DNA from: Patescibacteria group bacterium
GTDB taxonomy: Bacteria; Patescibacteriota; Patescibacteriia; Patescibacteriales; XYC2-FULL-47-12
Length of the DNA stretch: 64,000 nucleotides
Assembly (NCBI GenBank): GCA_041652935.1
Contig: JBAZGH010000001.1
Span: 7,393 to 71,392, forward strand
Direction: 5' to 3'
Part shown: positions 6,806-42,877 of the stretch, one piece after another
How positions within the stretch are numbered: the stretch's first letter is position 1
Layout: every line of letters begins with the position of its first letter
Made by a program: the position numbers and the translations under genes
Notes under the pieces: generated by a model
Told to the model about the DNA's origin: nothing
The model's input: only the letters and a program-made list of their open reading frames with translations
The model's database searches: none

Positions 6806-8599
6806 ATGTTTAGTATGTTCAAAAAATTATTTAATGCAGCCAAAATTTTTAAGCGCGCTTTCGGCCAACATAAGAAAGTTTTAGTGCTATTATTTTTCTT
6901 AAGTTTTTTAAACAGTATTTTAGAAGGAGTCGGAATTAGCGCCTTAATACCTTTCTTTTCTTTTATTGGGCATAATCAGTTTGGCAACACTGATTTAATT
7001 TCGCGATCAATAGAGAATTTTTTTATTTATTTACATATCCCATTTACTCTAAAATTTTTATTAATTTTTGTCTTATCCCTCTTTATATTGAAAGCAATTG
7101 TATTATTTTTTACTAATTTTATAGCTGCTTTAGTTACTACTAGTTATGAAAAAAATTTACGCAGCAATTTATTTAAGCTGACCCTATATGATTCATGGCC
7201 GCATTTAATCAAACAAAAAGTCGGGCATTTGGATCAATTGCTAGTTACTGACATAAACTGCAGCTCTAGTTTAATTTCCAGTATAGTTACCGGAGCGTTG
7301 ATGTTTACTAAATTAGTCGTCTATGTTTTAGTGGCTATAAATTTATCAATACCAATAACGCTTTTTGCTTTAATTTTAGGTCTGCTCACTTTTTTTATTT
7401 TTAAGCCGTTTTTTTATAAAAATCAAATTATGTCGCGTCGGGCATCTAATATGTATAAAGATTTAGCCCATTTTGTGAATGAGAATATAATTGGCATGAA
7501 AACCGTTAAATCAATGTTTGTGGAAAAATCAGTTATTGAGCGAGGGAAAAAATATTTTGAAGAACTTAGAAGTGTTAATCTTAAAGTAGCCGTCAGTCGG
7601 CATATTACCCACGCCTTAATGCAGCCGATTGGTTTTATTTTTATTATAGCGATATTCTCTTTTTCCTATAAAACTAATATTTTTAATTTTGCTTCTTTCG
7701 TTGTTATAGTATATGCTATTAATCAGATTTTTACTCAAATCCAGTCCGGTCAGGCGCATTTACATGGCATGATTTCATCAGCTCCATATCTAATGAATAT
7801 AATAAACTATCAAGAAATTGCTCGACAAAATATTGAAGAAGACAAAGGGAATAAAAAGTTTGTTTTTAATAATAATTTAGAACTCGCAGATGTTAATTTT
7901 AGTTACAATTCCAACCAAGAGACCTTAAGACATATAAATTTATTAATCAAAAAAGGAGATATGATTGGTTTAGTCGGCCATTCGGGTGCTGGCAAAACAA
8001 CAATGGTTGACTTGCTGTTGAGACTTTTTCAACCTGATAGTGGAAATATTTTGTTAGATGGAAGTAATATTAATGATTTTAGCTTAAGAGAATGGCGAAC
8101 AAATGTCGGCTATGTGTCTCAAGATATTTTTTTATTAAATGATACGATTGAAAATAATATTAAATTTTATAACAATAGTTTAACTAAAAAAGAAGTAGAA
8201 AAATTTGCTAAAATTGCTAATATTTTTGATTTTGTTTCAAGTTTGCCAGATAAATTTTCGGCAGTTATTGGTGAAAGAGGAATATTGTTGTCCGGAGGGC
8301 AAAGACAGCGCATTATTTTAGCTAGAATTCTAGCGAAAAATCCTAAAATTTTAATTTTAGATGAAGCAACCAGCGCTTTAGATAATGAATCAGAAATTCA
8401 GATTCAGAAAGCGATAGAAAATTTAAAGGGAAAAATTACAGTTTTAGCCATTGCTCATAGATTGACAACAGTTAAAAATTGCGATCGAATTATTGTTTTA
8501 AAAGATGGAGAAATAATTGAAAATGGAGAGCCGAAAGAATTACTCAATAACAAAAATTCTGCTTTTTATGAGATGTATAATATAAAAAATAATAGTTGA
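6806..8599 (+). CDS. ABC transporter with fused permease and ATPase (MsbA-like exporter)
   Basis: 597 aa. There is an N-terminal six-helix transmembrane domain. Walker A is GHSGAGKTT, the signature is LSGGQRQR and Walker B is ILILDEAT. Confidence 0.8.
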   Translation: MFSMFKKLFNAAKIFKRAFGQHKKVLVLLFFLSFLNSILEGVGISALIPFFSFIGHNQFGNTDLISRSIENFFIYLHIPFTLKFLLIFVLSLFILKAIVLFFTNFIAALVTTSYEKNLRSNLFKLTLYDSWPHLIKQKVGHLDQLLVTDINCSSSLISSIVTGALMFTKLVVYVLVAINLSIPITLFALILGLLTFFIFKPFFYKNQIMSRRASNMYKDLAHFVNENIIGMKTVKSMFVEKSVIERGKKYFEELRSVNLKVAVSRHITHALMQPIGFIFIIAIFSFSYKTNIFNFASFVVIVYAINQIFTQIQSGQAHLHGMISSAPYLMNIINYQEIARQNIEEDKGNKKFVFNNNLELADVNFSYNSNQETLRHINLLIKKGDMIGLVGHSGAGKTTMVDLLLRLFQPDSGNILLDGSNINDFSLREWRTNVGYVSQDIFLLNDTIENNIKFYNNSLTKKEVEKFAKIANIFDFVSSLPDKFSAVIGERGILLSGGQRQRIILARILAKNPKILILDEATSALDNESEIQIQKAIENLKGKITVLAIAHRLTTVKNCDRIIVLKDGEIIENGEPKELLNNKNSAFYEMYNIKNNS

Positions 8600-20050: not shown

Positions 20051-21433
20051 TTACCCCCCGCTCGCATCCCGCCCCAACAACACAGTCCGAATAGTTTTGA
20101 GCATAATAACCAGGTCTAAAAATAAGGACCTGTTTTTTATATAGTATAAATCGTACTGCAGTTTTTTTACCGTGTCCTCTACCGTCGGAGAGTGGTATTC
20201 GCCGCAGACCTGGTCCCAACCGGAAATTCCCGGCTTAACCAGGGTGCGCTCGTTGTAAAAAGGAATTTGTTCTTGCAGTTGGCTTGCCAGATTAGGCCGC
20301 TCCGGACGGGGCCCGATTAAACTCATTTCACCTTTTAAAATATTTATCACTTGCGGTATTTCATCAATTCTAGTATTGCGTAAGAAGTAACCAAACTTAG
20401 TAATGCGGGCATCGTTAGGAACGGTTGGCCGCCCAGTATTTCCCTCCTCGCGCATTGTCCGGAATTTTATTAAGTTAATCGGCCTATTATTTTTTCCGGC
20501 CCGTTCTTGCCTATAAAATATTGTACCGCGGCTTTCTATTTTTATAATGGCTGCGATAATTGGCCAAAACGGCAGGGTGATTAGAAAAATAAAAAGGGCG
20601 ATAATTATATCATAGACCCTTTTTATTTTATCAAACCATGATTTTCCGCCCTCCTGCAGATTTTCTAAAAACCACATTTGGTTAATTGATTCTACTGGAA
20701 TTTTGCCGGTTATTTTTTCATAGAAGTTCGGCAGGCTGGAAAAATTTATTCCCAAGTGCAGGCAGTCAAATAAATTTGATCGGATTTCATTTGAGGTTTG
20801 GGCATCATCAGTCAAAATGACCGAGGAAATTTTATGTTCCAGCAGGTATTTTTTAATATTGGCAATGTCTTTATAATGTTTTACTTCATATAATCCCCGC
20901 TCATAGATATCGCCCTTATATAATACGAAAGATATCCTTAGCCCTAAATGCGGATTATCATTAAAATATTTTATCAATTCTTTTGTTTTTTCGTTATATC
21001 CGATAATCGCTATTTTATTTTTCGGCAAATAAGACTTCAGCGTTTTATTATAAATCTGCCGCCAGATTAAAAATAAAGCCGCGGTAATGACAATATCAAT
21101 CAAAAGATTCCTTTTCGGCGCGATGTTTAAATTAGGCATTAAATAGAAGAAAGCGGAGCCGAGCAGGAAGGAAAAAAACAAAGCCAGCGCGGTATGGGTA
21201 TAAAATTTAGCGTTATTAATCGCGATGGTAAGGTCGTATAAATTGCTGATATAAAAAATCAGCAGCCATAAAATAAAAACGGCTGTAAACGGGCCGATAT
21301 GGTCGGGCCATTGGCGCGGCATGGTTTCGTTCCCATATCTAACCAGCAGAGTTAAATACAATGAAACATATAGTATGCCGATATCGCCCAGCAGAAGAAG
21401 GTATTTTTTAAATTGGAGTGAGTAGTACTTCAT
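20051..21433 (-). CDS. Undecaprenyl-phosphate sugar phosphotransferase (WbaP/PglC-type initiating 'bacterial sugar transferase')
   Basis: 460 aa. The N-terminal half has multiple transmembrane segments. The C-terminal catalytic domain carries the hallmark SLIGPRPERP. GC looks higher than its neighbours. Confidence 0.8.
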   Translation of the reverse strand: MKYYSLQFKKYLLLLGDIGILYVSLYLTLLVRYGNETMPRQWPDHIGPFTAVFILWLLIFYISNLYDLTIAINNAKFYTHTALALFFSFLLGSAFFYLMPNLNIAPKRNLLIDIVITAALFLIWRQIYNKTLKSYLPKNKIAIIGYNEKTKELIKYFNDNPHLGLRISFVLYKGDIYERGLYEVKHYKDIANIKKYLLEHKISSVILTDDAQTSNEIRSNLFDCLHLGINFSSLPNFYEKITGKIPVESINQMWFLENLQEGGKSWFDKIKRVYDIIIALFIFLITLPFWPIIAAIIKIESRGTIFYRQERAGKNNRPINLIKFRTMREEGNTGRPTVPNDARITKFGYFLRNTRIDEIPQVINILKGEMSLIGPRPERPNLASQLQEQIPFYNERTLVKPGISGWDQVCGEYHSPTVEDTVKKLQYDLYYIKNRSLFLDLVIMLKTIRTVLLGRDASGG

Positions 21434-21626
21434 GGGTAGGATTATAGTATATTTTTAAGATAAAAGCAAGTTTAGTTTATCTGAGCGCCAAGAGTTTTTG
21501 GCGCTGGATTTATTTACATTTTTTATTTTTTATGTTATCATATTCGGAACGCTGCTTTAGTTTTAAAAAGCAGTTTTTAGATAGGTCTTTGTAAAAAAAC
21601 GAAAAAAACGAATAGGAGACGGTGCT

Positions 21627-23297
21627 ATGACAAAAAAAATGTTAGCAGAGCTGTTTGTCAGAGCTATCGACCCACAATTTGGAGAAGACAACATCTATCG
21701 GAATCCAGCCCAAATAACCATTTCCTTGGGACCGGTAATGATCGCGACTGTTGTCCAGGAGCGCGTAGCAGGTGTAGAAGCTGAAGTTGTGTCGGAAAAC
21801 AATTTCCGGCCATTTCTAAGAAAAGCTCCCTTGGACGGGAGGGGAATGCCCGACCATCTGGCTTTGCAAAAAGAGCGACCGGCAGAATTCATTTTTATCT
21901 CGGCGAGCATCAGCAACGCGGTCCCACGGGCGCTGGAACTCATCGGCATTTACCGCAACATGCCCGAGGAGCTAAGACCGAAATGGATTGTGGTCGGCGG
22001 CTGGCATGCCGGAGACAGCCCCAAGGAATTTCTGCTTGCCGGGGCCGATATCGTCGTCCATGGCGAAGGCGAGCCCGTCGTTAAGTCAATTATTGACGCG
22101 CTAAAAGGCGATTTGCCGCTGGAAAAAGTGCCTGGGATTTCCTATTGGTCGGCGGACGGGCAGATAAAAAGGAATCCGGTTTTTGACAAGCGCTATGAAG
22201 GGGAAGAGGGGTTTATTATCGTTCCGCCCGAAGAGATGGACCTTTTGCCTTACCCGAATTTCGGACTGGTGCGCTGGGCAAAAATAGAGATAATACCCAT
22301 AAGCAGAACAAGGGGTTGCGGCGGGAAGTGCCGTTTCTGCCGAGTTAAGGGAGAAGCGAGAGTTATTTCCCCAAAACGCCTTGCGGAACAGATAGAATCT
22401 CTGTGCAGCCAGGGGTATAGGCGATTTTTCCTAGTCGACGATCGCTCGGAAGAGGATATGGAAGGATTCATCGCTTGGTTGCAAGAAATAGTGAAATTGC
22501 GAAGGGAGAGGAAAATCCGGTGGATCTACATTACGGTCCAAAGCCGGTTATCCGCCGCCAATGACGAAGAACTGCTGCGGCTGATGCACGAGGCGGGAAT
22601 ACAGACAGTGGCAATCGGGGTTGAATCGGTTATTCCTGAAGAGTTGAGGGCCATGAAGAAGCCTATGAGCCAAGACCTTAATGAAATCGTCAGATTGATC
22701 AAGGTTTGGAAAAAACATGGCTTTTTCACGCATGCGATGCTCATCTTCGGCTATCCAATGCCATCCAAATCCAATCCGTTCCGCATGGATATTAAAGAGC
22801 GCGTCGCCAGATTCTGGTATTTTATCAAGGAGGCAAATCCGGACACGTTGCAGGTTTTAGCCTTAACGCCGATTCTGGGTACAGAGGACTGGCGAGATCT
22901 TGAAAGTCAAAACAGGATCTTCAGGGACTTGGGATGGCAGAATTGGGACGGCCTGCATGTGGTTTTCAGGCCGGATGAGCCCTTAACCGCCCCGCAGGTG
23001 CAGAGGGCTATTATTTATCTGCAGGACAGGTTTTATTCTTTTCTGTGGCTTAACATTCACGGAATTGCTTCTGTGGCGTTGAGAGCTTGCTATATCGGAT
23101 TGCTTGCGTTGGCTATGCCCTTTGTCTGGGCGCTTCTAATGCCTTTTAAGGGATTGGTTCCTAAATTAGCTTTTCGGCCCTGGCACAGGGTATGGCGCAA
23201 CACTATTCGCCGTCTTGGAGCCCAACTGATAGTTTTACGGGTTAAGGAAAAGCTTATTCCCTTCCTGCAAAAACTTGAAGAGCGTGAAGAACGTTAA
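21627..23297 (+). CDS. B12-binding-domain radical SAM protein with a C-terminal hydrophobic membrane anchor
   Basis: 556 aa. There is an N-terminal Rossmann-like B12-binding region. CGGKCRFC is a CX3CX2C motif. The C-terminal about 60 aa are hydrophobic. The gene is markedly GC-rich. Confidence 0.65.
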   Translation: MTKKMLAELFVRAIDPQFGEDNIYRNPAQITISLGPVMIATVVQERVAGVEAEVVSENNFRPFLRKAPLDGRGMPDHLALQKERPAEFIFISASISNAVPRALELIGIYRNMPEELRPKWIVVGGWHAGDSPKEFLLAGADIVVHGEGEPVVKSIIDALKGDLPLEKVPGISYWSADGQIKRNPVFDKRYEGEEGFIIVPPEEMDLLPYPNFGLVRWAKIEIIPISRTRGCGGKCRFCRVKGEARVISPKRLAEQIESLCSQGYRRFFLVDDRSEEDMEGFIAWLQEIVKLRRERKIRWIYITVQSRLSAANDEELLRLMHEAGIQTVAIGVESVIPEELRAMKKPMSQDLNEIVRLIKVWKKHGFFTHAMLIFGYPMPSKSNPFRMDIKERVARFWYFIKEANPDTLQVLALTPILGTEDWRDLESQNRIFRDLGWQNWDGLHVVFRPDEPLTAPQVQRAIIYLQDRFYSFLWLNIHGIASVALRACYIGLLALAMPFVWALLMPFKGLVPKLAFRPWHRVWRNTIRRLGAQLIVLRVKEKLIPFLQKLEEREER

Positions 23298-23308
23298 ATT
23301 TCTAATAA

Positions 23309-23345
23309 CCCCGTTTGAGTTAACACCTCAGCGGGTTTTTATTTT
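23309..23345 (+). terminator. Rho-independent terminator after the radical SAM gene
   Basis: An interrupted GC stem CCCG..TGAG / CTCA.CGGG is followed by TTTTTATTTT. Confidence 0.5.
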
Positions 23346-23383
23346 AAGTTGAATAACTATAAATAATCTGCTATATTAAATAC

Positions 23384-24403
23384 ATGAATAACGACAAAAA
23401 ATATGAATTTAACTGGCCGTTTTTCGGCAACCAGCACATCATCGATTTTTTACAGACCGGGATAAGCAATAACAGCCTGTCGCACTTTTATATTTTTTCC
23501 GGACCGCGGGATTTGGGGAAGTCAACGCTGGCTAATTTTTTTTCCCGTTCAATTTTGTGCGAAAATTTTAATGCCAAAAGAGGAAAACTGCCCTGTGGCG
23601 AATGCGTAAATTGCCGGCAGAAAAAGCACAGCGATATTACTGTGGTTGAAAAAGAAGCGGATAAAAAAAATATATCAATCGAGCAAATCAGGGAATTCAT
23701 AAAAATGATGAATATGGGTTCGTTTGGCAATTCCTATAAAATAGGAATTATCAGGGAAGCTGAAAATTTAAGCATTGAAGCGGCCAACGCGCTTTTAAAA
23801 ACACTGGAAGAACCAAAAAATAAAGTTTTAATAATAGCCCTTACTTCTTGGCTGGATAAATTGCCGCTGACGGTTAAATCCCGCGGCCAGACGCTTCTTT
23901 TTAAGCCCACAAGCCATGCCGGCATTTATGATTATTTAATAAAAGAGCATAAAGCGTCGCGCGACTTTGCCCTGAAACTTTCAAAAATATCAGTCGGCCG
24001 GCCGGCTTTGGCTGCCAAGTTGTTTCAGGAGGAAGAATTATTTAAACAGAGAAAACAAACCGCTGAATCGCTGATTAATGTTATAAGGGGGGATTTAAAT
24101 TTAAAATTTAAAGAAATAGATAGTTTATTGGGCGCGGGAAAAAATACTCAAGAGCAGAGGGAAAACGCCTTATTTATCTTAGAAATTTGGCAGACTATCG
24201 CCAGGGATCTTTTAATGATTCAGTCCGGATTGAGCGAATTTTCTATAAATGGATTTTCCTCTTCAGAATTAAATAGATTAAATTTAAACAGCCATGGTCT
24301 GATAATGCTGAATGACAATATTAAAAAAGGAAGGGGATATTTAGCCGCTAATGTTAATCCTAAATTAGTTTTGGAAAATATCTGCCTACAAATTACGAAT
24401 TAG
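23384..24403 (+). CDS. holB: DNA polymerase III delta' subunit
   Basis: 339 aa. FSGPRDLGKSTLANFF is an AAA+ Walker A-like motif. A C-x-x-C zinc module and a T.SW motif are present. Confidence 0.7.
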   Translation: MNNDKKYEFNWPFFGNQHIIDFLQTGISNNSLSHFYIFSGPRDLGKSTLANFFSRSILCENFNAKRGKLPCGECVNCRQKKHSDITVVEKEADKKNISIEQIREFIKMMNMGSFGNSYKIGIIREAENLSIEAANALLKTLEEPKNKVLIIALTSWLDKLPLTVKSRGQTLLFKPTSHAGIYDYLIKEHKASRDFALKLSKISVGRPALAAKLFQEEELFKQRKQTAESLINVIRGDLNLKFKEIDSLLGAGKNTQEQRENALFILEIWQTIARDLLMIQSGLSEFSINGFSSSELNRLNLNSHGLIMLNDNIKKGRGYLAANVNPKLVLENICLQITN

Positions 24404-24406
24404 TTT

Positions 24407-24483
24407 ATAAAGTTTAAAAGTTGAAAGTTAAAAAGTTCTTGTAAATAAAATACTTTTTAACTTTTAACTTTCTAACTTTTAAT
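24407..24483. repeat. Imperfect palindrome built from AAAGTTN and AACTTTN heptamers around a conserved loop TGTAAATAAAATACTTT (copy A of a family)
   Basis: Read directly. The left arm is aaagtttaaaagttgaaagttaaaaagt and the right arm is actttttaacttttaactttctaacttt. Confidence 0.7.
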
Positions 24484-24496
24484 TAATAATTATTAT

Positions 24497-25612
24497 ATGT
24501 TTAAACAACACAAAAAAGTTATATCACTTATTTTATTATTATTTGTCGCTTTGGGTTTGAGCGGCTGCAGCATTACCTTCGGGACTTCAAGCAATTCTTC
24601 AATGATTGACGGAGGGGTTTATAAGAGTTTTAACCGGGGTGTTGTTTGGAAGCAAAATTCCCTGGTCGCCTCAACCGGCAGCAAGGCAGTAAGTTTTAAT
24701 TCCGCCAACGTGGTCGCGTTAGCGATTGATCCGCAGGATGAGAACGCGATTTACGCCGGCACAGACAACGGTGGAATGCTTTATTCATACGACGGCGGAG
24801 CCAGCTGGAGCGTTGCCCGCGACTTAGGAAAAAGGTATGTGAAAGACATAAAAATAAGCCCGGTTGATAAATGCACAATTTATATTGCTTCCGAGAATAA
24901 AGTATTTAAGTCCGACGACTGCAGCCGGACATGGGATGATGTGTATTATGATAATAATACCGGCGTAATGATAAGAAGTTTAGCAATAGACCCCAGAAAT
25001 GAAAATATAATTTATGCCGGAACTTCGCGGGGAGATGTCATCACATCCTCAGATGCCGGAAAATCATGGAGCGCGCTGAAAAGATTCAGCGAAGATAAAT
25101 TATTCCGCGGCAAGAGCGAGATGAATATTATAAAAATTATTGTCAACCCAAAAAACAGTAATAATTTATGGATAGCCACCGAAGCCAACGGAGTCTTTAA
25201 AAGTATGGATAGGGGGGCGACTTGGCAGAGTTTTGAAGAAGAGTTTAAAGAAATTAACACTTCTAATTCAATATTAGTCAGTGATTTTGATCTTTTTGCC
25301 GGAGACGGGAAAACTATTATAGTTGCTACTAAAGCTGGATTATTAAGAAGTTTTGACGCCGGCGCGCATTGGCAGGTAGTTGATTTAGTCCCTCCATCAG
25401 ACAGCACCGCCATTAACGCGGTTAGGATGCATCCAACCGACGCCAGCATTATCTATTACGCTACAAACACCTCGTTTGGCAGCACAGACGACGGCGGGCA
25501 GGAATGGACCTCAAAGAAACTGCCAAGCACCCGGGCTGGCGCAGTTTTAATATCTGATCCAAGTGATTCTGACGTAGTTTATTTAGGAGTCAAATCAATA
25601 GTTCAGAAATAA
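24497..25612 (+). CDS. Lipoprotein with five BNR/Asp-box repeats (beta-propeller)
   Basis: 371 aa. The lipobox is LSGCS. Five S-x-D-x-G-x-x-W boxes are present: SYDGGASW, SSDAGKSW, SMDRGATW, SFDAGAHW, STDDGGQEW. Confidence 0.65.
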   Translation: MFKQHKKVISLILLLFVALGLSGCSITFGTSSNSSMIDGGVYKSFNRGVVWKQNSLVASTGSKAVSFNSANVVALAIDPQDENAIYAGTDNGGMLYSYDGGASWSVARDLGKRYVKDIKISPVDKCTIYIASENKVFKSDDCSRTWDDVYYDNNTGVMIRSLAIDPRNENIIYAGTSRGDVITSSDAGKSWSALKRFSEDKLFRGKSEMNIIKIIVNPKNSNNLWIATEANGVFKSMDRGATWQSFEEEFKEINTSNSILVSDFDLFAGDGKTIIVATKAGLLRSFDAGAHWQVVDLVPPSDSTAINAVRMHPTDASIIYYATNTSFGSTDDGGQEWTSKKLPSTRAGAVLISDPSDSDVVYLGVKSIVQK

Positions 25613-25630
25613 TTAAATAAATTTATAAAT

Positions 25631-26185
25631 ATGAACCAATACATTCAACAATATCAAGGAGAATTAACGCAGGCGATTGAGCATTTTAAAAAAGAAATTG
25701 CCAGCATCCGCACCGGGCGGGCAAACCCGGCCATATTGGACGCCGTACAAGTTGAATCTTACGGCGTTAAAGTCCCGTTACAGCAAGTGGGCAATATTTC
25801 AGTAGTTGACGCGCATTGCATGACCATAACTCCCTGGGATAAAAATATATTAAAAGAGGTTGAAAAAGGAATTGTAGAGGCAGACCTGGGAATTTCACCG
25901 GTTAACGAGGGTGATAAAATAAGAATTACTATTCCCCAGCCGACCGAAGAAGACCGCAAAAGCAGGGTAAAGAAACTAAATGAAAAATTGGAAGTTTCCC
26001 GCGTGCAAATAAGGCAAGCCAGAGATAAGATAAAAGACGCCATAGAAAAAGCGGAAGACGATAAAGATATTTCCGAGGATGATAAATTCAGGTTTTTGAA
26101 GGAAATGGAAGAAATAGTAAAGAACAACAATGATAAATTGCAAGAAATAAGAGACGGCAAGGAGAAGGAGATAATGACCATCTAA
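25631..26185 (+). CDS. frr: Ribosome recycling factor
   Basis: 184 aa. IASIRTGRANPAILD is the RRF signature. Confidence 0.85.
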   Translation: MNQYIQQYQGELTQAIEHFKKEIASIRTGRANPAILDAVQVESYGVKVPLQQVGNISVVDAHCMTITPWDKNILKEVEKGIVEADLGISPVNEGDKIRITIPQPTEEDRKSRVKKLNEKLEVSRVQIRQARDKIKDAIEKAEDDKDISEDDKFRFLKEMEEIVKNNNDKLQEIRDGKEKEIMTI

Positions 26186-26187
26186 GT

Positions 26188-26266
26188 TAGAAAGTTGAAA
26201 GTCAAAAGTTATAAAGTGCCTGTAAACAAAATACTTTCTAACTTTCAACTTTTAAACTTTTAACTT
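26188..26266. repeat. Copy B of the AAAGTT/AACTTT palindromic element, sharing the loop TGTAAACAAAATACTTT
   Basis: agaaagttgaaagtcaaaagtt ... actttctaactttcaacttttaaactttt. It is about 75% identical to copy A. Confidence 0.7.
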
Positions 26267-26271
26267 ACACT

Positions 26272-27420
26272 ATGTTCACAACAATTATTATATTTTTAGT
26301 TATTTTATCTATTCTAGTTTTTGCCCACGAACTGGGACATTTTTGGACTGCCAAGAAACTGGGCTTAACGCCCAAAGAGTTTGGCTTTGGTTTTCCTCCC
26401 AGAATTGGAGGGTTTTATAAAACTAAGCAAGGCAAATGGCGTTGGAAATGGGGGGGCGGTAAAATAGAAAATATAACGGGAACAATTTACTCAATAAATT
26501 ATCTGCCATTGGGAGGATTTGTTAATGTCGGCGAAGATGATGACATTGGAGGAGACGAAGAGTTAAAAAATGACCCAAAACATTTTAAAAACCAAAAGCC
26601 ATGGAAGCGAGGTGTGATTTTAACCGCCGGGGTGGTGATGAATTTAATACTGGCGGCCGTATTTTTTTCTATCGGCTATATGATTGGTTTGCCTAAAGTT
26701 GTGGATGAGGTTGGTCCGGGAGCGCGGTTTTCGGAAAAAAATATCCAAGTTGTCCAGATTCTTAGCAATACTCCGGCCGAGGAAGCGGGAGTTAAGGTGG
26801 GGGATATAATCATATCGATAAATGGGCAGGAATTTGCAAATTACAAAGATTTAAGCGATTTTGCCGCTTCTAAAAATAATGAACAGCTTGATTATAAAAT
26901 TAAGCGCGGCAAAGAAGAGCTGGATTTAATGATTGTTCCAGAGCCGATTTTTGAAAATGACAATATACCGGGAATTGGAATCGCGATTGCCGAAACCGGC
27001 TTAGTTAGTTATCCATGGTATCTGGCGATTTGGGAAGGTATAAAAACAACCATATTTTTAACCTGGTATATCATAGTTGCTTTTGCAGTTCTGATTAAAA
27101 GTTTAATAATGGGTCATGGAGCCGGGGTGGAAATAGCCGGACCGGTTGGAATCGCCAATATGACGGGGCAGATGGCGCAGCTGGGCTTTGTTTATATTCT
27201 GCAGTTTTCCGCTATTTTATCGATTAACCTGGCGATTATAAATTATTTGCCGTTTCCGGCGCTGGATGGCGGGCGGGTGTTATTTTTAATTATAGAAAAA
27301 TTCCGCGGCAAGCCGGTTTCGGAAAAAGTAGAAGCCTTTATGCATAATTTGGGCTTTATATTATTAATGCTCGCGGTTGCGGTTGTAACTCTTAGGGATG
27401 TGTTAAAATTGTTTAATTAA
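26272..27420 (+). CDS. rseP: RIP zinc metalloprotease (site-2 protease, RseP-like) with a PDZ domain
   Basis: 382 aa. It has HELGHF (HExxH), a PDZ domain in the middle and the C-terminal LDGG motif. Confidence 0.8.
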   Translation: MFTTIIIFLVILSILVFAHELGHFWTAKKLGLTPKEFGFGFPPRIGGFYKTKQGKWRWKWGGGKIENITGTIYSINYLPLGGFVNVGEDDDIGGDEELKNDPKHFKNQKPWKRGVILTAGVVMNLILAAVFFSIGYMIGLPKVVDEVGPGARFSEKNIQVVQILSNTPAEEAGVKVGDIIISINGQEFANYKDLSDFAASKNNEQLDYKIKRGKEELDLMIVPEPIFENDNIPGIGIAIAETGLVSYPWYLAIWEGIKTTIFLTWYIIVAFAVLIKSLIMGHGAGVEIAGPVGIANMTGQMAQLGFVYILQFSAILSINLAIINYLPFPALDGGRVLFLIIEKFRGKPVSEKVEAFMHNLGFILLMLAVAVVTLRDVLKLFN

Positions 27421-27424
27421 ATAA

Positions 27425-29077
27425 ATGATTAAAAAATTATTCACCTCTAAAATAAATTCAATTACTTCAGCAGCAATAATTGTCGCGGCGGCGTCGGTAG
27501 CCAGCCGCTTTTTAGGTATTTTCCGCGATAGGATTTTAGCCGGTGAATTCGGCGCCGGCGATACGCTTGATATCTATTATGCCGCTTTTCGCGTTCCTGA
27601 TTTAGTTTTTAATTTGCTTGTTTTAGGCGCGCTGTCAGCCGGTTTTATCCCGGTATTTGCCGGCTTATGCGAGAAAAAATCCGTTTTTAAATTTTTATGC
27701 CGCGGTAAAGAGAAGTGCGGCCAAGAGGCCTGGTATGTCGCCAACGCGGTAGTGAACTTAATCGGCATTTCTTTGATTATTATTTCAGCAATTTTAGTTA
27801 TTTTTACTCCCCAACTAATGCGTTTAATTACTCCAGGATTTGACGGGGAAAAGTTAAGCATGACAATAGCAATGACCCGCATTATGTTTTTATCTCCATT
27901 CTTTTTGGGTTTAAGTTCGGTTATGGGCGGAATTTTACAGTCATTTAAAAGATTTTTTGTCTATTCAGTCGCGCCGATAATGTATAATATCGGGATTATA
28001 ATCGGCGCTTTGTATTTTGTTCCGATTTGGGGAATTTACGGCTTGGCCTATGGAGTCGTTTTCGGCGCCCTGCTGCATTTTTTAATTCAGGTTCCGACTG
28101 CTTTCCATCTTGGCTACCGTTGGCAGCCGGTGCTTAATTTAAAAAATAAAAATGTCAGGGAAATAATAAAGATGATGGTTCCCCGGACAATGAGTTTGGC
28201 GATTTCCCAGATAAATTTAGTTGTAATTACTATTATCGCCTCTACTCTAGCGGCCGGCAGTTTGGCGATTTTTAATTTTGCCAATAATTTACAGTCATTT
28301 CCCATAGGCATATTCGGCATTTCTTTCGCGATAGCGGCTTTTCCAACCCTATCGTCTTTAGCGGATAGAAAGGAAGAACTAATCCGCAATTTTTCCAAAG
28401 TATTGCGCCAAATTATTTTTTTCATTCTGCCGGCAACAGTTTTCATACTGACTTTGCGCGTGCAAATTATCCGCGTTGTTCTCGGAAGCGGCCAGTTTGA
28501 CTGGGAAGACACTATTTTAACCATGGATACTTTGACTTTTTTTAGTTTAAGTTTATTCGCGCAAGCAACCATCCCGCTTTTAATCCGCATGTTTTACGCC
28601 CAGAAAGACAGCAAGACTCCATTCATTGTCGGCTTAATTTCAGCCATAGCTAATATATTTTTAAGTTTGTGGCTTGCCTCCCGCATGGGCATAGCCGGTT
28701 TGGCGCTGGCTTTTTCCATCGCCATGATAATAAATTTTGCCCTGCTTTGGCTTTTATTAAAAGCAAGGTTGGGCGAATTGGATGAAGTAAATATACTCTA
28801 CTCAACTTTAAAAATTTCTTTAGCCAGTATTTGCGCAGGTCTGGGCGTACAGGCCATGAAATTAATCGTCGGCTCTTCTGCGGTTATTGACATGACCCGT
28901 TTTTGGGGTATATTTACCCAAAGTGCTGTTGCTGGAATTTTCGGCTTGTTTATTTTTATTCTGCTTTGCTGGATGCTGCATGTGGAAGAGCTTTATAATT
29001 TTGTCCGCAGCATCCGCGCCAGAGCCAAGCGGGAAAAAGTTGAAACCGAGGGGCATGGCGAAGCGCGAGGCATTTAA
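27425..29077 (+). CDS. murJ: Lipid II flippase MurJ (MviN family)
   Basis: 550 aa with about 14 transmembrane helices. The N-terminal SRFLGIFRDRILAGEFGAG is typical of MurJ. Confidence 0.8.
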   Translation: MIKKLFTSKINSITSAAIIVAAASVASRFLGIFRDRILAGEFGAGDTLDIYYAAFRVPDLVFNLLVLGALSAGFIPVFAGLCEKKSVFKFLCRGKEKCGQEAWYVANAVVNLIGISLIIISAILVIFTPQLMRLITPGFDGEKLSMTIAMTRIMFLSPFFLGLSSVMGGILQSFKRFFVYSVAPIMYNIGIIIGALYFVPIWGIYGLAYGVVFGALLHFLIQVPTAFHLGYRWQPVLNLKNKNVREIIKMMVPRTMSLAISQINLVVITIIASTLAAGSLAIFNFANNLQSFPIGIFGISFAIAAFPTLSSLADRKEELIRNFSKVLRQIIFFILPATVFILTLRVQIIRVVLGSGQFDWEDTILTMDTLTFFSLSLFAQATIPLLIRMFYAQKDSKTPFIVGLISAIANIFLSLWLASRMGIAGLALAFSIAMIINFALLWLLLKARLGELDEVNILYSTLKISLASICAGLGVQAMKLIVGSSAVIDMTRFWGIFTQSAVAGIFGLFIFILLCWMLHVEELYNFVRSIRARAKREKVETEGHGEARGI

Positions 29078-29107
29078 CACTTAATAAATAACAATTAATA
29101 TTTAATT

Positions 29108-29416
29108 ATGAACAAAATTAATAATTTCCACAAAACAACCATCTTTACTTTTACGCTCGCTTTATTATTTATTTTTTCCGCTATTTTAGTGCAGATAAAA
29201 GGGCAAAGCGAGTTGAGTATGAATTGCAGTTATCTTGACCCCATCACCATAGATATTTTTGCTTTTATATTCGCCCTATTTTTAGTTATTGAAGGAATGT
29301 ATAAAATATATCAGGATAAAGATGCGGCATTGACGAAACAAATGACGAGGAGCATTAGAGTTTCCGTTGGCATGGCTATTTTAACTCTCCATATTCTGCA
29401 GTTTTTTTATAAGTAG
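29108..29416 (+). CDS. Small hypothetical membrane protein
   Basis: 102 aa with three predicted transmembrane segments. No recognisable family. Confidence 0.35.
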   Translation: MNKINNFHKTTIFTFTLALLFIFSAILVQIKGQSELSMNCSYLDPITIDIFAFIFALFLVIEGMYKIYQDKDAALTKQMTRSIRVSVGMAILTLHILQFFYK

Positions 29417-29467
29417 CAGCGGAATCTGTAAATAAAAAACGTAAATTATTAATATATAATTTATTTT

Positions 29468-31348
29468 ATGAATCACATACGTAACTTCTGTATAATCGCG
29501 CACATAGATCACGGCAAGTCCACATTGGCAGACAGGATGCTTGAAATAACGGGAACGGTGGAAAAAAGGAAAATGAAAGAGCAATTGCTGGACAGGATGG
29601 ACTTGGAAAGAGAGCGGGGGATAACCATTAAACTGCAGCCCGTTAATATGGAGTACGAAGGATACCATTTGAATTTAATCGATACTCCCGGGCACGTGGA
29701 TTTTTCCTATGAAGTTTCAAGAAGTTTAGCGGCTGTTGAGGGCGCTGTTTTGTTAGTGGACGCAACTCAAGGAATACAGGCGCAGACGCTGGCGAACCTT
29801 TATTTAGCGCTTGACCAAAATTTAGAGATAGTACCGGTTGTAAATAAAATTGATTTGCCCGCGGCGGATGTAAAAGGAACAAAAGAAAGCATTGTTAAAT
29901 TGCTTGGATGCAAACAAGAAGAAATTTTAGAGGCCAGCGGAAAGACCGGCGCAGGAGTGAAGGAAATTTTACAGGCAGTTATTGATTGTGTGCCGCCGCC
30001 CAAGACAACCGCGGAAAATAAATTGCGCGCTTTAATTTTTGACTCTGTTTACGACGAATATAAGGGCGTAGTCGCCTATGTCCGGCTGGTTGACGGAGAA
30101 GTTAAGAAAGGGGATGAGATAAAAATGGTTACGACTAAATATGAAAGCGACGCCCTTGATGTCGGCGTCTTCAAGCCGGATTATAAATCGACCGGAGAGC
30201 TGAGAACAGGAGAAATCGGCTATATTGTGACTGGCCTTAAATCAGTTGAAGAGTGCAAAGTCGGAGATACCATAACATTATCGAACGCTTTAATAGCGTC
30301 CCCCTCCTTAAGCGAGGGGACAGGGGTGGTGATGAAAAATAAAAATCACACCCCCCCAACCCCCCCCTCGTCCAAGGGGGGGCGCGTTCGCGCAATGGTT
30401 GTCGCACTTCCCGGCTATAAAGAAGTAAAGCCGATGGTTTTTGCGGGGATATTCTGCAAAGAGGGAAATGAGTATGAAGAGCTGCGCGAGGGCATTGGAA
30501 AATTAAAATTAACTGATTCAGCCCTGGTTTATGAACCGGAGCATTCACAGGCGCTGGGCTTCGGGTTCCGATGCGGATTTTTAGGCCTGCTTCACCTGGA
30601 AATATTCCAAGAGCGCTTGCGCCGGGAGTATGGCTTGGGGCTGGTAGTTACAACGCCTTCAGTTGCTTATCAGCTTAAAAAAACCGGCGGGGAAGAGATG
30701 ATAGTGCGCTCGGCCCTGGATATGCCTGACCCCGCGCATATCGCTTCCATAAAAGAGCCGTGGGTAACCTTAGATGTAATTTCCCCCAAAGATTATATGG
30801 GAGGAATTATGTCTTTAGTGCAGGAAAAGCGGGGAACATATAAAAATACTGAGTACATTGACGATAACCGAGTAATTTTGCATTACGAAATGCCGATGTC
30901 GACTATCCTAACTGATTTTTATGACAAAGTAAAAAGCGCAACATCTGGTTACGCTTCTATTAATTATGAATTTTTAGATTACCGGAATTGCGAGGTGCAG
31001 CGATTGGACATTTTAGTCGCAGAAGAGCAGGTTGAATCTTTGGCAACTATTGTTTATAAGGACGAGGCGTTTAAGCGCGGCAAAGAAATTGTGAACTCGC
31101 TGAAAAATACATTGCCGCGCCAGCAGTTTGTTTTAAAAATACAGGCAGCTATTGGCGGTAAAGTAATCGCGGCTGAAAGAGTGTCCGCCTTGCGGAAAGA
31201 TGTAACTGCTAAATTATACGGCGGCGATGTTTCCCGCAAGCGCAAACTTTTAGAAAAGCAGAAAAAAGGGAAGAAGAAAATGATGTCTATGGGCAAGGGC
31301 AAGGTTGATATTCCGCCGGAGGCGTTCCTTGCGGTGTTAAAGAAATAA
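29468..31348 (+). CDS. lepA: Elongation factor 4 (LepA), carrying a roughly 34-aa in-frame insertion
   Basis: 626 aa. The G-domain motif NFCIIAHIDHGKSTLADR and the LepA C-terminal domain are present. The insertion lies between TITLSNA and ALPGYKEVKP. Confidence 0.85.
   Translation: MNHIRNFCIIAHIDHGKSTLADRMLEITGTVEKRKMKEQLLDRMDLERERGITIKLQPVNMEYEGYHLNLIDTPGHVDFSYEVSRSLAAVEGAVLLVDATQGIQAQTLANLYLALDQNLEIVPVVNKIDLPAADVKGTKESIVKLLGCKQEEILEASGKTGAGVKEILQAVIDCVPPPKTTAENKLRALIFDSVYDEYKGVVAYVRLVDGEVKKGDEIKMVTTKYESDALDVGVFKPDYKSTGELRTGEIGYIVTGLKSVEECKVGDTITLSNALIASPSLSEGTGVVMKNKNHTPPTPPSSKGGRVRAMVVALPGYKEVKPMVFAGIFCKEGNEYEELREGIGKLKLTDSALVYEPEHSQALGFGFRCGFLGLLHLEIFQERLRREYGLGLVVTTPSVAYQLKKTGGEEMIVRSALDMPDPAHIASIKEPWVTLDVISPKDYMGGIMSLVQEKRGTYKNTEYIDDNRVILHYEMPMSTILTDFYDKVKSATSGYASINYEFLDYRNCEVQRLDILVAEEQVESLATIVYKDEAFKRGKEIVNSLKNTLPRQQFVLKIQAAIGGKVIAAERVSALRKDVTAKLYGGDVSRKRKLLEKQKKGKKKMMSMGKGKVDIPPEAFLAVLKK
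30296..30398. mobile_element. GC-rich palindromic miniature element inserted in frame within lepA
   Basis: Hairpin 1 is GTCCCCCTC-CTTAAGC-GAGGGGAC. AGGGGTGGTG and CACACCCCCC are complementary. Hairpin 2 is CCCCCCC-TCGTCCAA-GGGGGGG. The element is about 60-70% GC in an AT-rich gene and resembles the element at 42711-42872. Confidence 0.55.
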
Positions 31349-31761: not shown

Positions 31762-33573
31762 TTGTCAATTTTTATGGATAAAAAGTGGATTATAAAGGAA
31801 AAACAGGAATACACTAAAAACAATCCGGGATTGCACCCGGTTATTTTTCGATTACTGGCAAATCGCGGTTTTAGCGTTGATGAAATAGAGAAATTTTTAA
31901 AGCTGGATTACAAGGAAAATTTACATGATCCATTCTTATTTAAAAATATGAAAGCAGCGGTAGAATTGATTTTTAAGCACATGAAGAATGGAAGCAGAAT
32001 TATAATATACGGAGATTATGACGCTGACGGTGTTACAGCCACGGCGGTTATGCAGAAGACATTGGAATTTTTAGGATGCAAGAATTTAGATATTTACATT
32101 CCCCACCGCGAAAGCGAGGGATACGGCATAAATAAAAGCGCGGTAGAGGAAATTGCCAAAAGCGGCGCTAGTTTAATTATCACAGTTGATACCGGCATTA
32201 GAAGCATCGGCGAGGTTGCGCTAGCTAAAGAAAAGGGAATGGACGTTGTTTTAACCGACCATCATGAATGCGGCGAACAGGTTCCCGATTGCTTGATTAT
32301 TAATCCAAAAGTTAACGGCGAAAAATATCCATTCAGGGATTTGGCCGGAGTTGGCGTGGCGTTTAAAGTGTCGCAGGCGTTGTTGTACGCACGCGAAAAC
32401 CATGCGCAACATAACGCAAAACAACGCGAAAAAGAGGGATTTGAAAAGTGGCTATTGGATTTAGTAGCCATAGGCACCATTGCTGATTTAATGCCATTAG
32501 TTAATGAGAATAGAGTTTTGGTGAATTATGGATTAGTCGTATTGAATAAGACGCAGAGAATCGGCATTAAAAAATTAATGGAAACCGCGCAAAGCGATAC
32601 TGATAAAAATGGAAATAAGCGGGAAGTTGACGCTTGGCAAATTGGTTATCAATTAGCCCCTCGCTTAAATGCGGCTGGTCGGCTTGGGCGCGCAAATACG
32701 GCCTACGAATTACTTATTACTGAAGATAAACAAGAAGCAACAGAAATAGCCCATAAATTAGACAATACGAATAAAGAACGCCAAAATATTACACAAGAAA
32801 TTTTTGAGCAGGCAGAGCAAGAGATTAATAAGAAAAACAAAATTTTATTTGCTGTTTATAATGGAGAGCAAAAGAACGCCTGGTCTTCAGGAGTGATGGG
32901 TTTGGTGGCTGGAAAATTAACAGAAAAATATTACCGGCCATCGTTGGCGATTACAAGCAAAATTGGCAATGATGGGTTGGAAATTGTCGGGAGCGCCAGA
33001 AGTATTGCTGAATTTAACATTACATCCATGCTGGAGGAATGCGGTGAATTATTATCGCATTACGGCGGGCACAAACAGGCGGCCGGATTCACCATAAAGC
33101 CGGGAAAATTAGATGAGTTTTTAGCCAAAGCAAAAAAAATTACTGAACATGAATTAAAAGATGTTGAATTAATCCCCGCCCTAGAAATTGATTTAGAGAT
33201 AAATTTTAATGACGTGTCTGAAGATTTATATGAAGCATTGCAAAAATTAAGGCCCTTCGGAGTTAAAAATGCCCAACCAAAATTTGTTAGCAAAAATTTA
33301 AAAGTGATAAATGCAGTTAAGATGGGGAATGAACAACAACATCTCAAGTTACAAGTTACAAGTTACAAGTCACAAAAATTAAGCGCAGTTGGTTTTAGCG
33401 TATTGGAAGAATGGAAAAAAATAAAAATTGGAGACGAAATTGATTTAGTGTATTATATAGATATGAACGAATGGAACGGGAGGAGGGAAGTTCAGTTGAA
33501 GATTATAGACCTAAAAAATAATTCAAATATTCAAATGAATTCAAATACCTCAAATACAAATAATTCGAATTAA
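31762..33573 (+). CDS. recJ: Single-stranded-DNA-specific exonuclease RecJ
   Basis: 603 aa. DHH motifs (IIIYGDYDADGVTA, DHH) and DHHA1 are present. The C-terminal tail is N/S-rich low-complexity sequence encoded by TTCAAAT repeats. Confidence 0.8.
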   Translation: MSIFMDKKWIIKEKQEYTKNNPGLHPVIFRLLANRGFSVDEIEKFLKLDYKENLHDPFLFKNMKAAVELIFKHMKNGSRIIIYGDYDADGVTATAVMQKTLEFLGCKNLDIYIPHRESEGYGINKSAVEEIAKSGASLIITVDTGIRSIGEVALAKEKGMDVVLTDHHECGEQVPDCLIINPKVNGEKYPFRDLAGVGVAFKVSQALLYARENHAQHNAKQREKEGFEKWLLDLVAIGTIADLMPLVNENRVLVNYGLVVLNKTQRIGIKKLMETAQSDTDKNGNKREVDAWQIGYQLAPRLNAAGRLGRANTAYELLITEDKQEATEIAHKLDNTNKERQNITQEIFEQAEQEINKKNKILFAVYNGEQKNAWSSGVMGLVAGKLTEKYYRPSLAITSKIGNDGLEIVGSARSIAEFNITSMLEECGELLSHYGGHKQAAGFTIKPGKLDEFLAKAKKITEHELKDVELIPALEIDLEINFNDVSEDLYEALQKLRPFGVKNAQPKFVSKNLKVINAVKMGNEQQHLKLQVTSYKSQKLSAVGFSVLEEWKKIKIGDEIDLVYYIDMNEWNGRREVQLKIIDLKNNSNIQMNSNTSNTNNSN

Positions 33574-33576
33574 TTT

Positions 33577-33975
33577 ATGCAAGATAAAGTGGTTCATAGA
33601 GAATTATCATATAAAATTACAGGTTTATTATTTAAAGTTCATACTGAGTTGGGGCATTATCGCAATGAAAAACAGTACGCTGATTATTTTGAAAAATTAT
33701 TGCAATTATATAATATTGAATATGTTAGAGAATATAGATTTTTAGATCAACAATATGGAAAGGAACAAGTAAGATGTGTTGCGGATTTCATTATTAATGA
33801 TAAGGTGCTTTTAGAGTTTAAATCTAGAAATTTTTTAACTAAAGACGATTATTACCAGGTTAGAAGATATTTAATAACTCTGAATTTACAATTAGGTATT
33901 TTGATAAATTTTAAACAATATAGGCTATCACCAAAACGTATTTTAAATAGTGATTTTTTGAGAAATAAATTTTAA
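33577..33975 (+). CDS. GxxExxY-family protein (PD-(D/E)XK-like)
   Basis: 132 aa. The G..E..Y pattern appears in ELGHYRNEKQYADY, with a D..E.K-like core. Confidence 0.5.
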   Translation: MQDKVVHRELSYKITGLLFKVHTELGHYRNEKQYADYFEKLLQLYNIEYVREYRFLDQQYGKEQVRCVADFIINDKVLLEFKSRNFLTKDDYYQVRRYLITLNLQLGILINFKQYRLSPKRILNSDFLRNKF

Positions 33976-42038: not shown

Positions 42039-42710
42039 ATGACTGTTTATATAATAATTCCAACATATAATGAAGAGAAAAGCATCAGAGCGGTTATTAA
42101 AGACATAAAAAATAGTTTCAATGAAGCCAGGATTATTATCGTTGATGATGCATCTGATGACCAGACGGTTGCCTTTGCACAAAATTTACCTATTGCCATA
42201 ATTTTACAACACGCTGTAAACAGGGGGCAGGGAGCGGCTTTAAAAACCGGTACCGAATGCGCTATAATAGAGGGAGCGGATATTATTGTACATTTTGACG
42301 CTGACGGGCAGTTTTTGGCTGATGAAATTAAAGATATGACAGCGCCCATAGTTAATGGGCAAGCAGATATTGTTTTTGGCTCGCGTTTCCTAGATAAAAA
42401 ATCAAGCATGCCATGGTTGAAAAAAAATATAATAATGCCCTTAGCGCGCTTAATTAATAAAATATTTTTTAATGTTCAATTATCTGATCCGCAGGCCGGC
42501 TTCCGCGCTTTTTCGCGAGAAGCTTATAAAAAAATAGAATGGCAACAGGATAGGATGGCGCACTGTTCGGAAATTATGCGCAATGCTTTCAAAAATAAAT
42601 TACGAATAAAAGAAGTTCCAATAACTGTGATCTATAAAGATTTCGGCCAAAAATTTTCCGGAGGATTTAGAATTTTAAAAGATATGTTTATTGGGAGGTT
42701 TACACGATAA
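42039..42710 (+). CDS. Family 2 glycosyltransferase (polyprenyl-phosphate sugar synthase-like)
   Basis: 223 aa. It has VYIIIPTYNEEKSI and a D.D motif. Confidence 0.75.
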   Translation: MTVYIIIPTYNEEKSIRAVIKDIKNSFNEARIIIVDDASDDQTVAFAQNLPIAIILQHAVNRGQGAALKTGTECAIIEGADIIVHFDADGQFLADEIKDMTAPIVNGQADIVFGSRFLDKKSSMPWLKKNIIMPLARLINKIFFNVQLSDPQAGFRAFSREAYKKIEWQQDRMAHCSEIMRNAFKNKLRIKEVPITVIYKDFGQKFSGGFRILKDMFIGRFTR

Positions 42711-42872
42711 CGCCCTCACCCCTAACCCCTCTCCCAAAGGGAGAGGGGGAAAATGTCAATTTAACTTTATTTATAATTTTATTAAATAATATAAAATAAA
42801 TAAACTCCAAAATTATTTCTGTTATGACGAGAGGGAACTCCCTCTCCTCGTGGGAGAGGGTTGGGGTGAGGG
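42711..42872. mobile_element. MITE-like element of 162 bp with imperfect GC-rich terminal inverted repeats and an AT-rich core
   Basis: The left end CCCTCACCCCTAACCCCTCTCCC-AAA-GGGAGAGGGGG and the right end CCCTCTCC-TCGTG-GGAGAGGG-TTGGGGTGAGGG are reverse complements of each other. Each contains a local hairpin. Confidence 0.6.
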
Positions 42873-42877
42873 AATAT

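Follow-up and report, generated by a model that had tools for sequence, protein, structure and literature searches.

Why does the lepA gene of a bacterium from the Patescibacteria, or Candidate Phyla Radiation (CPR), encode a run of residues that its closest relatives do without? We examined this question in a 64-kb stretch of DNA with a GC content of 35.5% (the window, to which all positions refer unless another locus is named). In a similarity search, the LepA (elongation factor 4) encoded there was closest to proteins of Candidatus Falkowbacteria (Patescibacteria/CPR). A sequence-only reading of this DNA had proposed that a GC-rich palindromic miniature element sits in frame inside the gene. 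It is likely, in our view, that the surplus in lepA is selfish palindromic repeat DNA of the kind represented by repetitive extragenic palindromes (REPs), boxC-like repeats and Rickettsia palindromic elements (RPEs), and that, like RPEs and intragenic REPs, it lies in frame and is simply translated. The insertion is indeed palindromic, but in place of the single clean element that had been described, members of at least two repeat families are nested in it to form a composite.

The size of the surplus depends on the reference. Opposite residues 273-313 of the window protein, Aquifex LepA (2ywe) has 7 residues, which gives the approximately 34 extra residues originally reported, whereas codon-threaded alignments against the nearest orthologue (P0003, 593 aa, from locus L001) put the net gain at 33 aa; the corresponding 99 nt are a multiple of 3. 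Delimited by alignment to orthologues, the variable loop L271-V312 holds 42 aa in the window compared to 9 aa (TPKSEGKVK) in L001, and the open reading frame (ORF) runs through it uninterrupted, as had been claimed. The eight nearest LepA sequences (P0002-P0009; 80-86% identity, 591-606 aa) have the short loop and, rather than carrying an AT-rich, non-palindromic counterpart as would be expected of a lineage-specific loop, lack the segment altogether. The segment is also absent from most of the 120 LepA homologues examined. The insert core has 61% GC versus 44.7% for the remainder of lepA, so that the compositional contrast pointed out earlier is real but less abrupt than claimed. A ratio of nonsynonymous to synonymous differences (pN/pS) of 0.096 between the window gene and its L001 orthologue indicates that lepA is under strong purifying selection. 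To call the gene essential was an overstatement, since lepA in E. coli is conserved, yet not essential.

The insert contains three adjacent hairpins, where two perfect or near-perfect hairpins and a pair of complementary segments had been recognized: GTCCCCCTC/GAGGGGAC (30298-30321), GGGGTGGTGAT/ATCACACCCC (30323-30354, with an AT loop inside) and CCCCCCCT/AGGGGGGG (30361-30382, 8 bp and perfect). They are flanked by a 7-nt inverted repeat in which CGAACGC (30282-30288) pairs with GCGTTCG (30384-30390). The 124-nt stretch folds better than 200 of 200 dinucleotide shuffles, with z-scores of -4.58 as DNA and -4.74 as RNA. Its core is a GC-rich inverted doublet, in which a hairpin with GGGGTGGTG is followed by an AT spacer and by CACACCCC with a hairpin; the unit of this doublet, termed U' on the left and U on the right, is a 10-bp C/G hairpin with a GGGGTGGTG or CACCACCCC arm. 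The frame used across the AT spacer is the sole stop-free frame on that strand. Within the 64-kb window, hairpins of the CCCCTC..GAGGGG type are confined to two places, the lepA insert and 42726-42748. Runs of C7, C8 and G7, in a segment known from a single assembly, raise the question of an assembly or sequencing artefact, either a chimeric join or poly-G/poly-C errors. However, the frame survives three homopolymer runs plus 99 extra bases, the palindromic symmetry is internally consistent, and homologous composites are found both in an independent assembly (locus L003), at this very site, and, from other samples, in recJ of loci L037 and L038. An artefact is therefore extremely improbable.

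The GC-rich core is enclosed in an outer shell. Loci L038 and L037 (proteins P0010 and P0011) carry, at the same site in lepA, an intact palindrome of ~100 nt with TGTCATTGCGAG/CTCGCAATGACA ends, the 13-nt ends being CTGTCATTGCGAG...CTCGCAATGACAG. The flanks of the window core, GCTTTAATAGCG and CGCGCAATGGTTG, are diverged versions of these palindrome ends, and the codons surrounding the shell (TTATCGAACGCT, CCACTTCCCGG) likewise match L038 and L037. Judged by this correspondence, the window shell is a degenerate derivative of the TGTCATTGCGAG/CTCGCAATGACA palindrome, and the lepA insert as a whole is a composite, with the degenerate shell enclosing the GC-rich inverted doublet. The lepA of L003, from another sample and an independent assembly, has the identical shell/U' junction (CG followed by TCCCCCTCCTTA); this copy is without the third hairpin, and its first loop encloses a further small hairpin, GCCTGCC..GGCAGG. 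That hairpin is found nested in other elements of L037 and in recJ of L003 as well. Tiny hairpins of this type (GCCTGCC/GCCTACC-GGCAGGC) lie inside larger palindromes of different families at L037 4360-4385 and 5558-5580 and at L003 5237-5281 and 8655-8680, and behave as would a very small repeat whose targets are other hairpins. The shell family itself forms inverted dimers of 60-90 nt. Its pattern, GTCATTGCGA-N40-70-TCGCAATGAC, has more than 120 matches in IMG/VR viral contigs, often several per contig, and these copies look like CGTCATTGCGAGCGAAGCGAAGCAATCCAG...CTGGATTGCTTCGC..GCTCGCAATGACG.

Further copies, a search for which had been proposed, exist elsewhere. RecJ of L037 and L038 contains an in-frame TSPSLSKEGTGVVMKKEK, whose DNA is 84% identical over 57 nt, spacer included, to the left half of the window lepA insert (E-value of 1e-9 in a 0.6-Mb local database of loci that had been fetched for lepA and not for the motif). 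The lepA genes of L037 and L038 have no GC core, and the window recJ (31762-33573) has neither the 57-nt insert nor any other insert of this kind. Related U' copies are found in recJ of L003 and L004, at another site. Across eight Falkowbacteria loci, at least seven sites in RecJ have received in-frame insertions, from several repeat families, and the protein is 701 aa long in L037 compared to 603 aa in the window. These copies bear on the possibility that the loop expanded in place in this lineage, by slippage, local duplication or GC-biased drift, with no insertion of a dispersed element. Linker length and sequence do vary in all LepA homologues, and the exact insert is unique to one contig. 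However, local slippage yields no shared sequence at unrelated sites, and the presence of the 57-nt sequence with its AT spacer in recJ of related genomes largely refutes an expansion in place; in addition, the unit is a repeat in many phyla and the shell belongs to the palindrome family with its more than 120 viral copies. Expansion in place is thus very unlikely.

The dispersal of the unit extends well beyond the Falkowbacteria. A pattern derived from U' has 31 matching loci among GTDB species genomes and 38 among metagenomes. Its hosts include a gammaproteobacterial metagenome-assembled genome (four contigs), Thioploca (six contigs, with several copies at contig ends), Bacteroidota isolates, Planctomycetota, Chloroflexota (Anaerolineae) and Magnetococcus, as well as the CPR groups Peribacteria, Gracilibacteria, Nomurabacteria and Paceibacterota. 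The cross-phylum consensus is CCCCCTCCTT-loop-AAGGAGGGGG-TTA-GGGGGTGGTGAT (the arm is also given as GGGGGTGGTG), and several of the Thioploca and gammaproteobacterial copies are U'-spacer-U doublets with a layout like that in the window. Nearly all copies are intergenic, and in other phyla a start codon often follows the unit at a distance of 8-15 nt; the one copy well inside a long ORF is that in Falkowbacteria recJ. The U' pattern had 0 matches in IMG/VR viral contigs. BLAST searches with the lepA insert gave no match in 5,426 E. coli genomes or in plasmids, and only chance-level matches in phages. Within the window, a 14-nt match (GGGGTGGTGATGAA) at 26629 is part of the native coding region of the protease gene upstream and was judged a chance match rather than a further copy. 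In metagenome Ga0082212, U' forms tandem arrays with a 70-nt period and an AT-rich segment after each unit (L050 7960-8142; also L051 and L066).

Features of the lepA insert, its intergenic sister element and palindromic inserts in RecJ. Positions are those of the window unless a locus is given.
Feature	Position	Strand	Description
lepA (elongation factor 4)	29468..31348	+	626 aa, frame intact; E-value 2e-198 to Aquifex LepA 2ywe
Variable loop L271-V312	30278..30403	+	42 codons versus ~9 in relatives; follows the last strand of domain II and precedes the first of domain III
Outer shell, left remnant TCGAACGCTTTAATAGCG	30281..30298	+	Counterpart of TCGAACGCTGTCATTGCG in the intact palindrome of L038 lepA
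Unit U': hairpin GTCCCCCTC-cttaagc-GAGGGGAC, then G-rich arm GGGGTGGTGAT	30298..30333	+	Matches L037 recJ 6922-6978; fits the cross-phylum pattern
AT-rich spacer, loop of central hairpin	30334..30344	+	Encodes MKNKN with its neighbours; common to the L037/L038 recJ insert
Unit U: C-rich arm ATCACACCCC, linker, hairpin CCCCCCCT-cgtcca-AGGGGGGG	30345..30382	+	Approximate reverse complement of U'
Outer shell, right remnant CGCGTTCGCGCAATGGTTGTC	30383..30403	+	Counterpart of ...CGCTCGCAATGACAGTAC in L038
Intergenic sister element	42709..42875	.	Flanked by ORFs for a glycosyltransferase-like and a small membrane protein
RecJ palindromic inserts, L037	6723-6785, 6915-7028, 7479-7571, 7782-7844, 8166-8207		
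RecJ palindromic inserts, L038	4439-4528, 4559-4606, 4814-4849		
RecJ palindromic inserts, L003	8646-8777		
RecJ palindromic inserts, L004	13981-14070, 14599-14652		
RecJ palindromic inserts, L001	13532-13576		

The intergenic element listed in the table has inverted ends of ~35 nt, CCCTCACCCC-TAA-CCCCTCTCCC-aaa-GGGAGAGGGG ... GGGAGAGGGTTGGGGTGAGGG, around an AT-rich core, and folds as DNA with a z-score of -7.07. Its homology to L037 5409-5617, a copy in a different genomic context, extends through the core. In-frame mini-versions or half-units of it are present in the domain II/III loop of L004 lepA and in recJ of L037 and L038, and more than 120 units of this type occur in IMG/VR contigs. 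Its left end (42709-42752) is 88% identical to an intergenic repeat found in 4,317 of 5,426 complete E. coli genomes, for example in the deoB-deoD spacer and, in K-12, as CCCTCACCCTAACCCTCTCCCCAGAGGGGCGAGGGGAC adjoining fabI. We take this E. coli repeat to be boxC, said to have been described as intergenic by Bergler in 1992 and Bachellier in 1999. The resemblance that the sequence-only reading saw between the lepA insert and 42711-42872 holds for architecture and superfamily, but direct sequence similarity is weak: the lepA units share with this family the arm-TAA-hairpin layout and not the sequence, and the two are sister families.

LepA itself contains several sites at which such insertions are found. 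We aligned 121 LepA sequences, the window protein and 120 database homologues, one of which is the identical protein. Counting both window entries, 19 of the 121 have at least five extra residues at the domain II/III loop, and other LepAs have inserts after residue ~180 or after residue ~64. In many of them the insert peptides, of the PPLxRGG and PLSRGAGEG types (PLSRGAGEGKE, PPLARGG, PSLRGGE, SPLCQGGE), correspond to translated C/G hairpins, and the DNA of seven relatives contains palindromic inserts of several kinds. Unit U can be likened to the insert in loop 180 of L004 lepA and to the L001 recJ insert; it is absent from the L003 copy. In an AlphaFold2 model of the window protein, residues 279-308 have confidence values (pLDDT) below 50 and no secondary structure, and the loop sits between strands 268-271 (the last of domain II) and 324-330 (the first of domain III). 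This placement in a predicted disordered inter-domain linker is consistent with the earlier suggestion of a tolerated loop. The residue-180 site is modelled as the linker between the G domain and domain II, and the residue-64 site as a beta-hairpin turn. Inserts at residue 64 in P0010, P0011, P0016, P0022, P0059 and P0095 are AT-rich low-complexity peptides such as KIPNSKFQIPK and IPDNKHLTPDN, which points to another repeat family, rich in AT, at the hairpin turn of the G domain.

The location of the inserts at domain boundaries could also mean that the segment was recruited for a function, as a ribosome pause, an internal start at the domain II/III boundary or a loop that contacts a partner. 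At 30314-30334, Shine-Dalgarno-like GAGGGG and GGGGTGGTG stand directly before an in-frame ATG (M289, 30332-30334) at this boundary, and internal initiation or pausing at M289 is conceivable. The unit contains AAGGAGG/CCTCCTT and GGAGGTGAT-like strings, its hairpin pairs AAGGAGG with CCTCCTT, that is, Shine-Dalgarno with anti-Shine-Dalgarno strings, and its frequent position shortly upstream of start codons in other phyla is described above. However, inserts at the same site are wholly different between lineages and absent from most of them, the peptide is predicted to be disordered, and domain boundaries also simply tolerate insertions. Recruitment of the lepA insert for a function is therefore very unlikely, but the Shine-Dalgarno/anti-Shine-Dalgarno-like content might give some copies of the repeat a translational effect.

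The inserts are scattered on the LepA tree: the window protein is sister to the insert-free P0002, P0003, P0005 and P0006, P0010 and P0011 are sister to the insert-free P0009, and P0015 falls in another clade. This patchiness may have come about because lepA segments already bearing the composite were exchanged, by homologous recombination or laterally, and not because elements transposed repeatedly into one site, a possibility that we hold tentatively. The window and L003 share shell and core with an identical junction, yet their LepA proteins belong to different clades, and L004 has a fragment of an L003-type lepA 5' end (MNNIRNFAILAHIDH) upstream of its own lepA. Exchange of this kind would leave the original arrival of the insert and its presence in recJ unexplained, and so complements the insertion of palindromic repeat DNA and does not replace it. 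The L004 fragment (ATGAACAACATCCGTAACTTCGCCATATTGGCCCATATTGACCAC = MNNIRNFAILAHIDH; regions L004 9349-9575 and L003 1946-2022) is unlike L004's own lepA start. Three clustered hairpins precede it, and L003 has two of these as well, in another context. It may be the trace of an allele replacement by recombination.

Taken as selfish palindromic repeat DNA, the lepA insert would have arisen as follows. Hairpin-forming units, which themselves encode nothing, would spread or be copied between sites by relying on host or trans-acting functions; the best guess for their mobilization is transposition or copying of single-stranded DNA hairpins without target duplication, as proposed for REPs. Genic insertions would persist only if the frame is kept, no stop codon is introduced and the insertion falls in a solvent-exposed linker that permits it, the outcome in this case being a disordered 33-residue loop tolerated by selection on LepA. 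Hairpins would attract more hairpins, which would lead to nesting, and a few linkers of LepA and RecJ would become hot spots. An intein, an intron or translational bypass is unnecessary as an explanation, as this is a short stretch with no stop in the frame used and with colinear LepA sequence on both sides.

Several observations weigh against this interpretation. The window LepA protein, and hence the exact insert, is on record from one contig and assembly only, and two GC-rich elements in 64 kb is a low copy number. Even from L001, its closest relative, the window gene has diverged to saturation at synonymous sites. To account for the patchy distribution on the LepA tree, several gains, precise losses or recombination have to be assumed, and a recent insertion in the window lineage does not follow from it. 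The empty sites of relatives have diverged too far, with synonymous divergence (dS) saturated, for a target-site duplication of the lepA insert to be defined; the inverted ends are clear in 42709-42875 and L037 5409-5617, where a TA duplication is possible, albeit ambiguous. No tyrosine (Y1) transposase or REP-associated tyrosine transposase (RAYT) was found among ten small ORFs of the window, a scan that left aside its other ~54 ORFs and the genome beyond the 64 kb. Finally, we infer the translation of the insert from its open frame only, and we infer likewise its neutrality and way of moving.

A broader proposal, which we consider doubtful at present, is that transposase-less hairpin repeats (boxC-like repeats, the CCCCCTCCTT/GGGGGTGGTG family and CGTC-REP-like dimers) make up a pan-bacterial pool, carried also on phage or prophage DNA, that repeatedly colonizes the LepA and RecJ linkers of Falkowbacteria, nests within itself and yields lineage-specific loops. 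If true, an RPE-like process would operate outside Rickettsia, in CPR bacteria, despite their tiny genomes. In either case, inter-domain linkers are marked as natural permissive sites, and annotation and alignment of CPR proteins should take into account spurious length variation and PPLxRGG-like low-complexity loops. An intergenic element of a CPR bacterium that is near-identical to an E. coli repeat also raises the question of how units with no known transposase spread or arise across phyla.

The neighbourhood of lepA in the window shows some further features. A 132-aa ORF of the PD-(D/E)XK nuclease family (PDDEXK_3, E-value of 2.5e-20; 33577-33975, 24% GC) lies between recJ and rnhA; since these two genes are adjacent in L001, the ORF looks like an inserted gene. 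The C-terminal tail of the window RecJ is Asn/Ser-rich and of low complexity (NNSNIQMNSNTSNTNNSN; 33520-33573) and is absent from seven of seven aligned relatives. Gene GC content is 0.25-0.36 over positions 1-20042, where all genes are tightly packed on the + strand, compared to 0.38-0.50 over 20051-31348, for instance 0.50 in a radical-SAM-like ORF (21627-23297).

How does the insert compare with known palindromic repeats? Rfam searches at the gathering threshold, covering the window and five loci, returned two tRNAs only, and in E-value mode both elements gave sub-threshold matches to generic microRNA hairpins and a weak match to whalefall-1, and no known RNA family. Our literature search found no report of palindromic elements in CPR genomes. 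REPINs, REP doublets mobilized by RAYTs (PMC3116915, PMC3337134), likewise consist of two inverted palindromic units with a short spacer and the potential to form a long hairpin, which the inverted doublet in lepA also has; they differ in that the lepA insert has no GTAG tag at the hairpin feet and a low copy number in the window. The BoxC family comprises 32 copies of 56 bp (PMC2267715). A C-rich arm, TAA and a C/G hairpin are shared with it, and the boxC arrangement (CCCTCACCC-TAA-CCCTCTCCCC-loop-GGGGnGAGGGG) is matched by 42709-42752 at 88% identity to E. coli copies, whereas the lepA insert shares the layout, not the sequence, and has no such match in E. coli genomes.

Intragenic REPs, tagged GTAG or CGTC, are closer in their placement. 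According to the survey of Di Nocera et al. (2013; PMC3733652), they are mostly dimers with a coding capacity of 20-30 aa, and replication and repair genes harbour many of them; RPE-4 and RPE-6 are CGTC REPs, for which that account gives no known dedicated transposase, and the genomes surveyed, as there described, include none from the CPR. Head-to-head dimers within ORFs are common to both systems, the shell family forming inverted dimers and the window core an inverted doublet, and recJ is likewise a repair gene. Compared by text description only, and with no membership claimed, the shell family (T/CGTC-ATTGCGAG...AATCC) agrees with what the survey says of CGTC REPs, which have an unpaired CGTC/TGTC tag, a stem that starts with AT and a CCA tail; its intact copies in L038 and viral contigs have TGTC/CGTC, ATTGCG... 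and AATCC(A), while the window shell is too degenerate to score. The GC-rich core differs from CGTC REPs as described there, having no AT-starting stem of 8-9 bp, no loop of 4-5 nt and no CCA tail: a CGTC is present at 30297-30300, but with a stem of CCCCTC and loops of 6-7 nt.

The closest parallel in behaviour is that of RPEs (Ogata et al. 2000, 2002), as summarized in PMC10969869. According to this summary, RPEs are palindromic repeat DNA placed in frame in conserved genes, where they add a peptide without loss of the protein, and their families also have intergenic members. Both traits are seen here. The frame is kept and the fold apparently preserved (a 626-aa ORF with 33 additional aa in a predicted disordered linker and a pN/pS of 0.096), and copies are dispersed within genes (lepA and recJ of L003, L004, L037 and L038) and between them (42709-42875 and L037 5409-5617). 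The differences, again as far as the summary describes RPEs, are that RPE-1 is ~100-150 bp and specific to Rickettsia, whereas the modules described here are hairpins plus arms of ~35 nt, nested, found in a CPR host and spread over many phyla. The likeness to RPEs that the sequence-only reading proposed is thus supported as a functional analogy, with the qualification that outside Falkowbacteria the family is overwhelmingly intergenic. In-frame palindromic elements have been documented in Rickettsia, Coxiella, Anabaena, Opitutus, Xanthomonas and others, according to PMC10969869 and PMC3733652, and their occurrence in CPR bacteria would be an addition to a known phenomenon. CPR genomes are regarded as streamlined, yet lepA and recJ are studded with apparently translated, putatively selfish hairpin DNA, which would extend the RPE and intragenic-REP phenomenon to this group.

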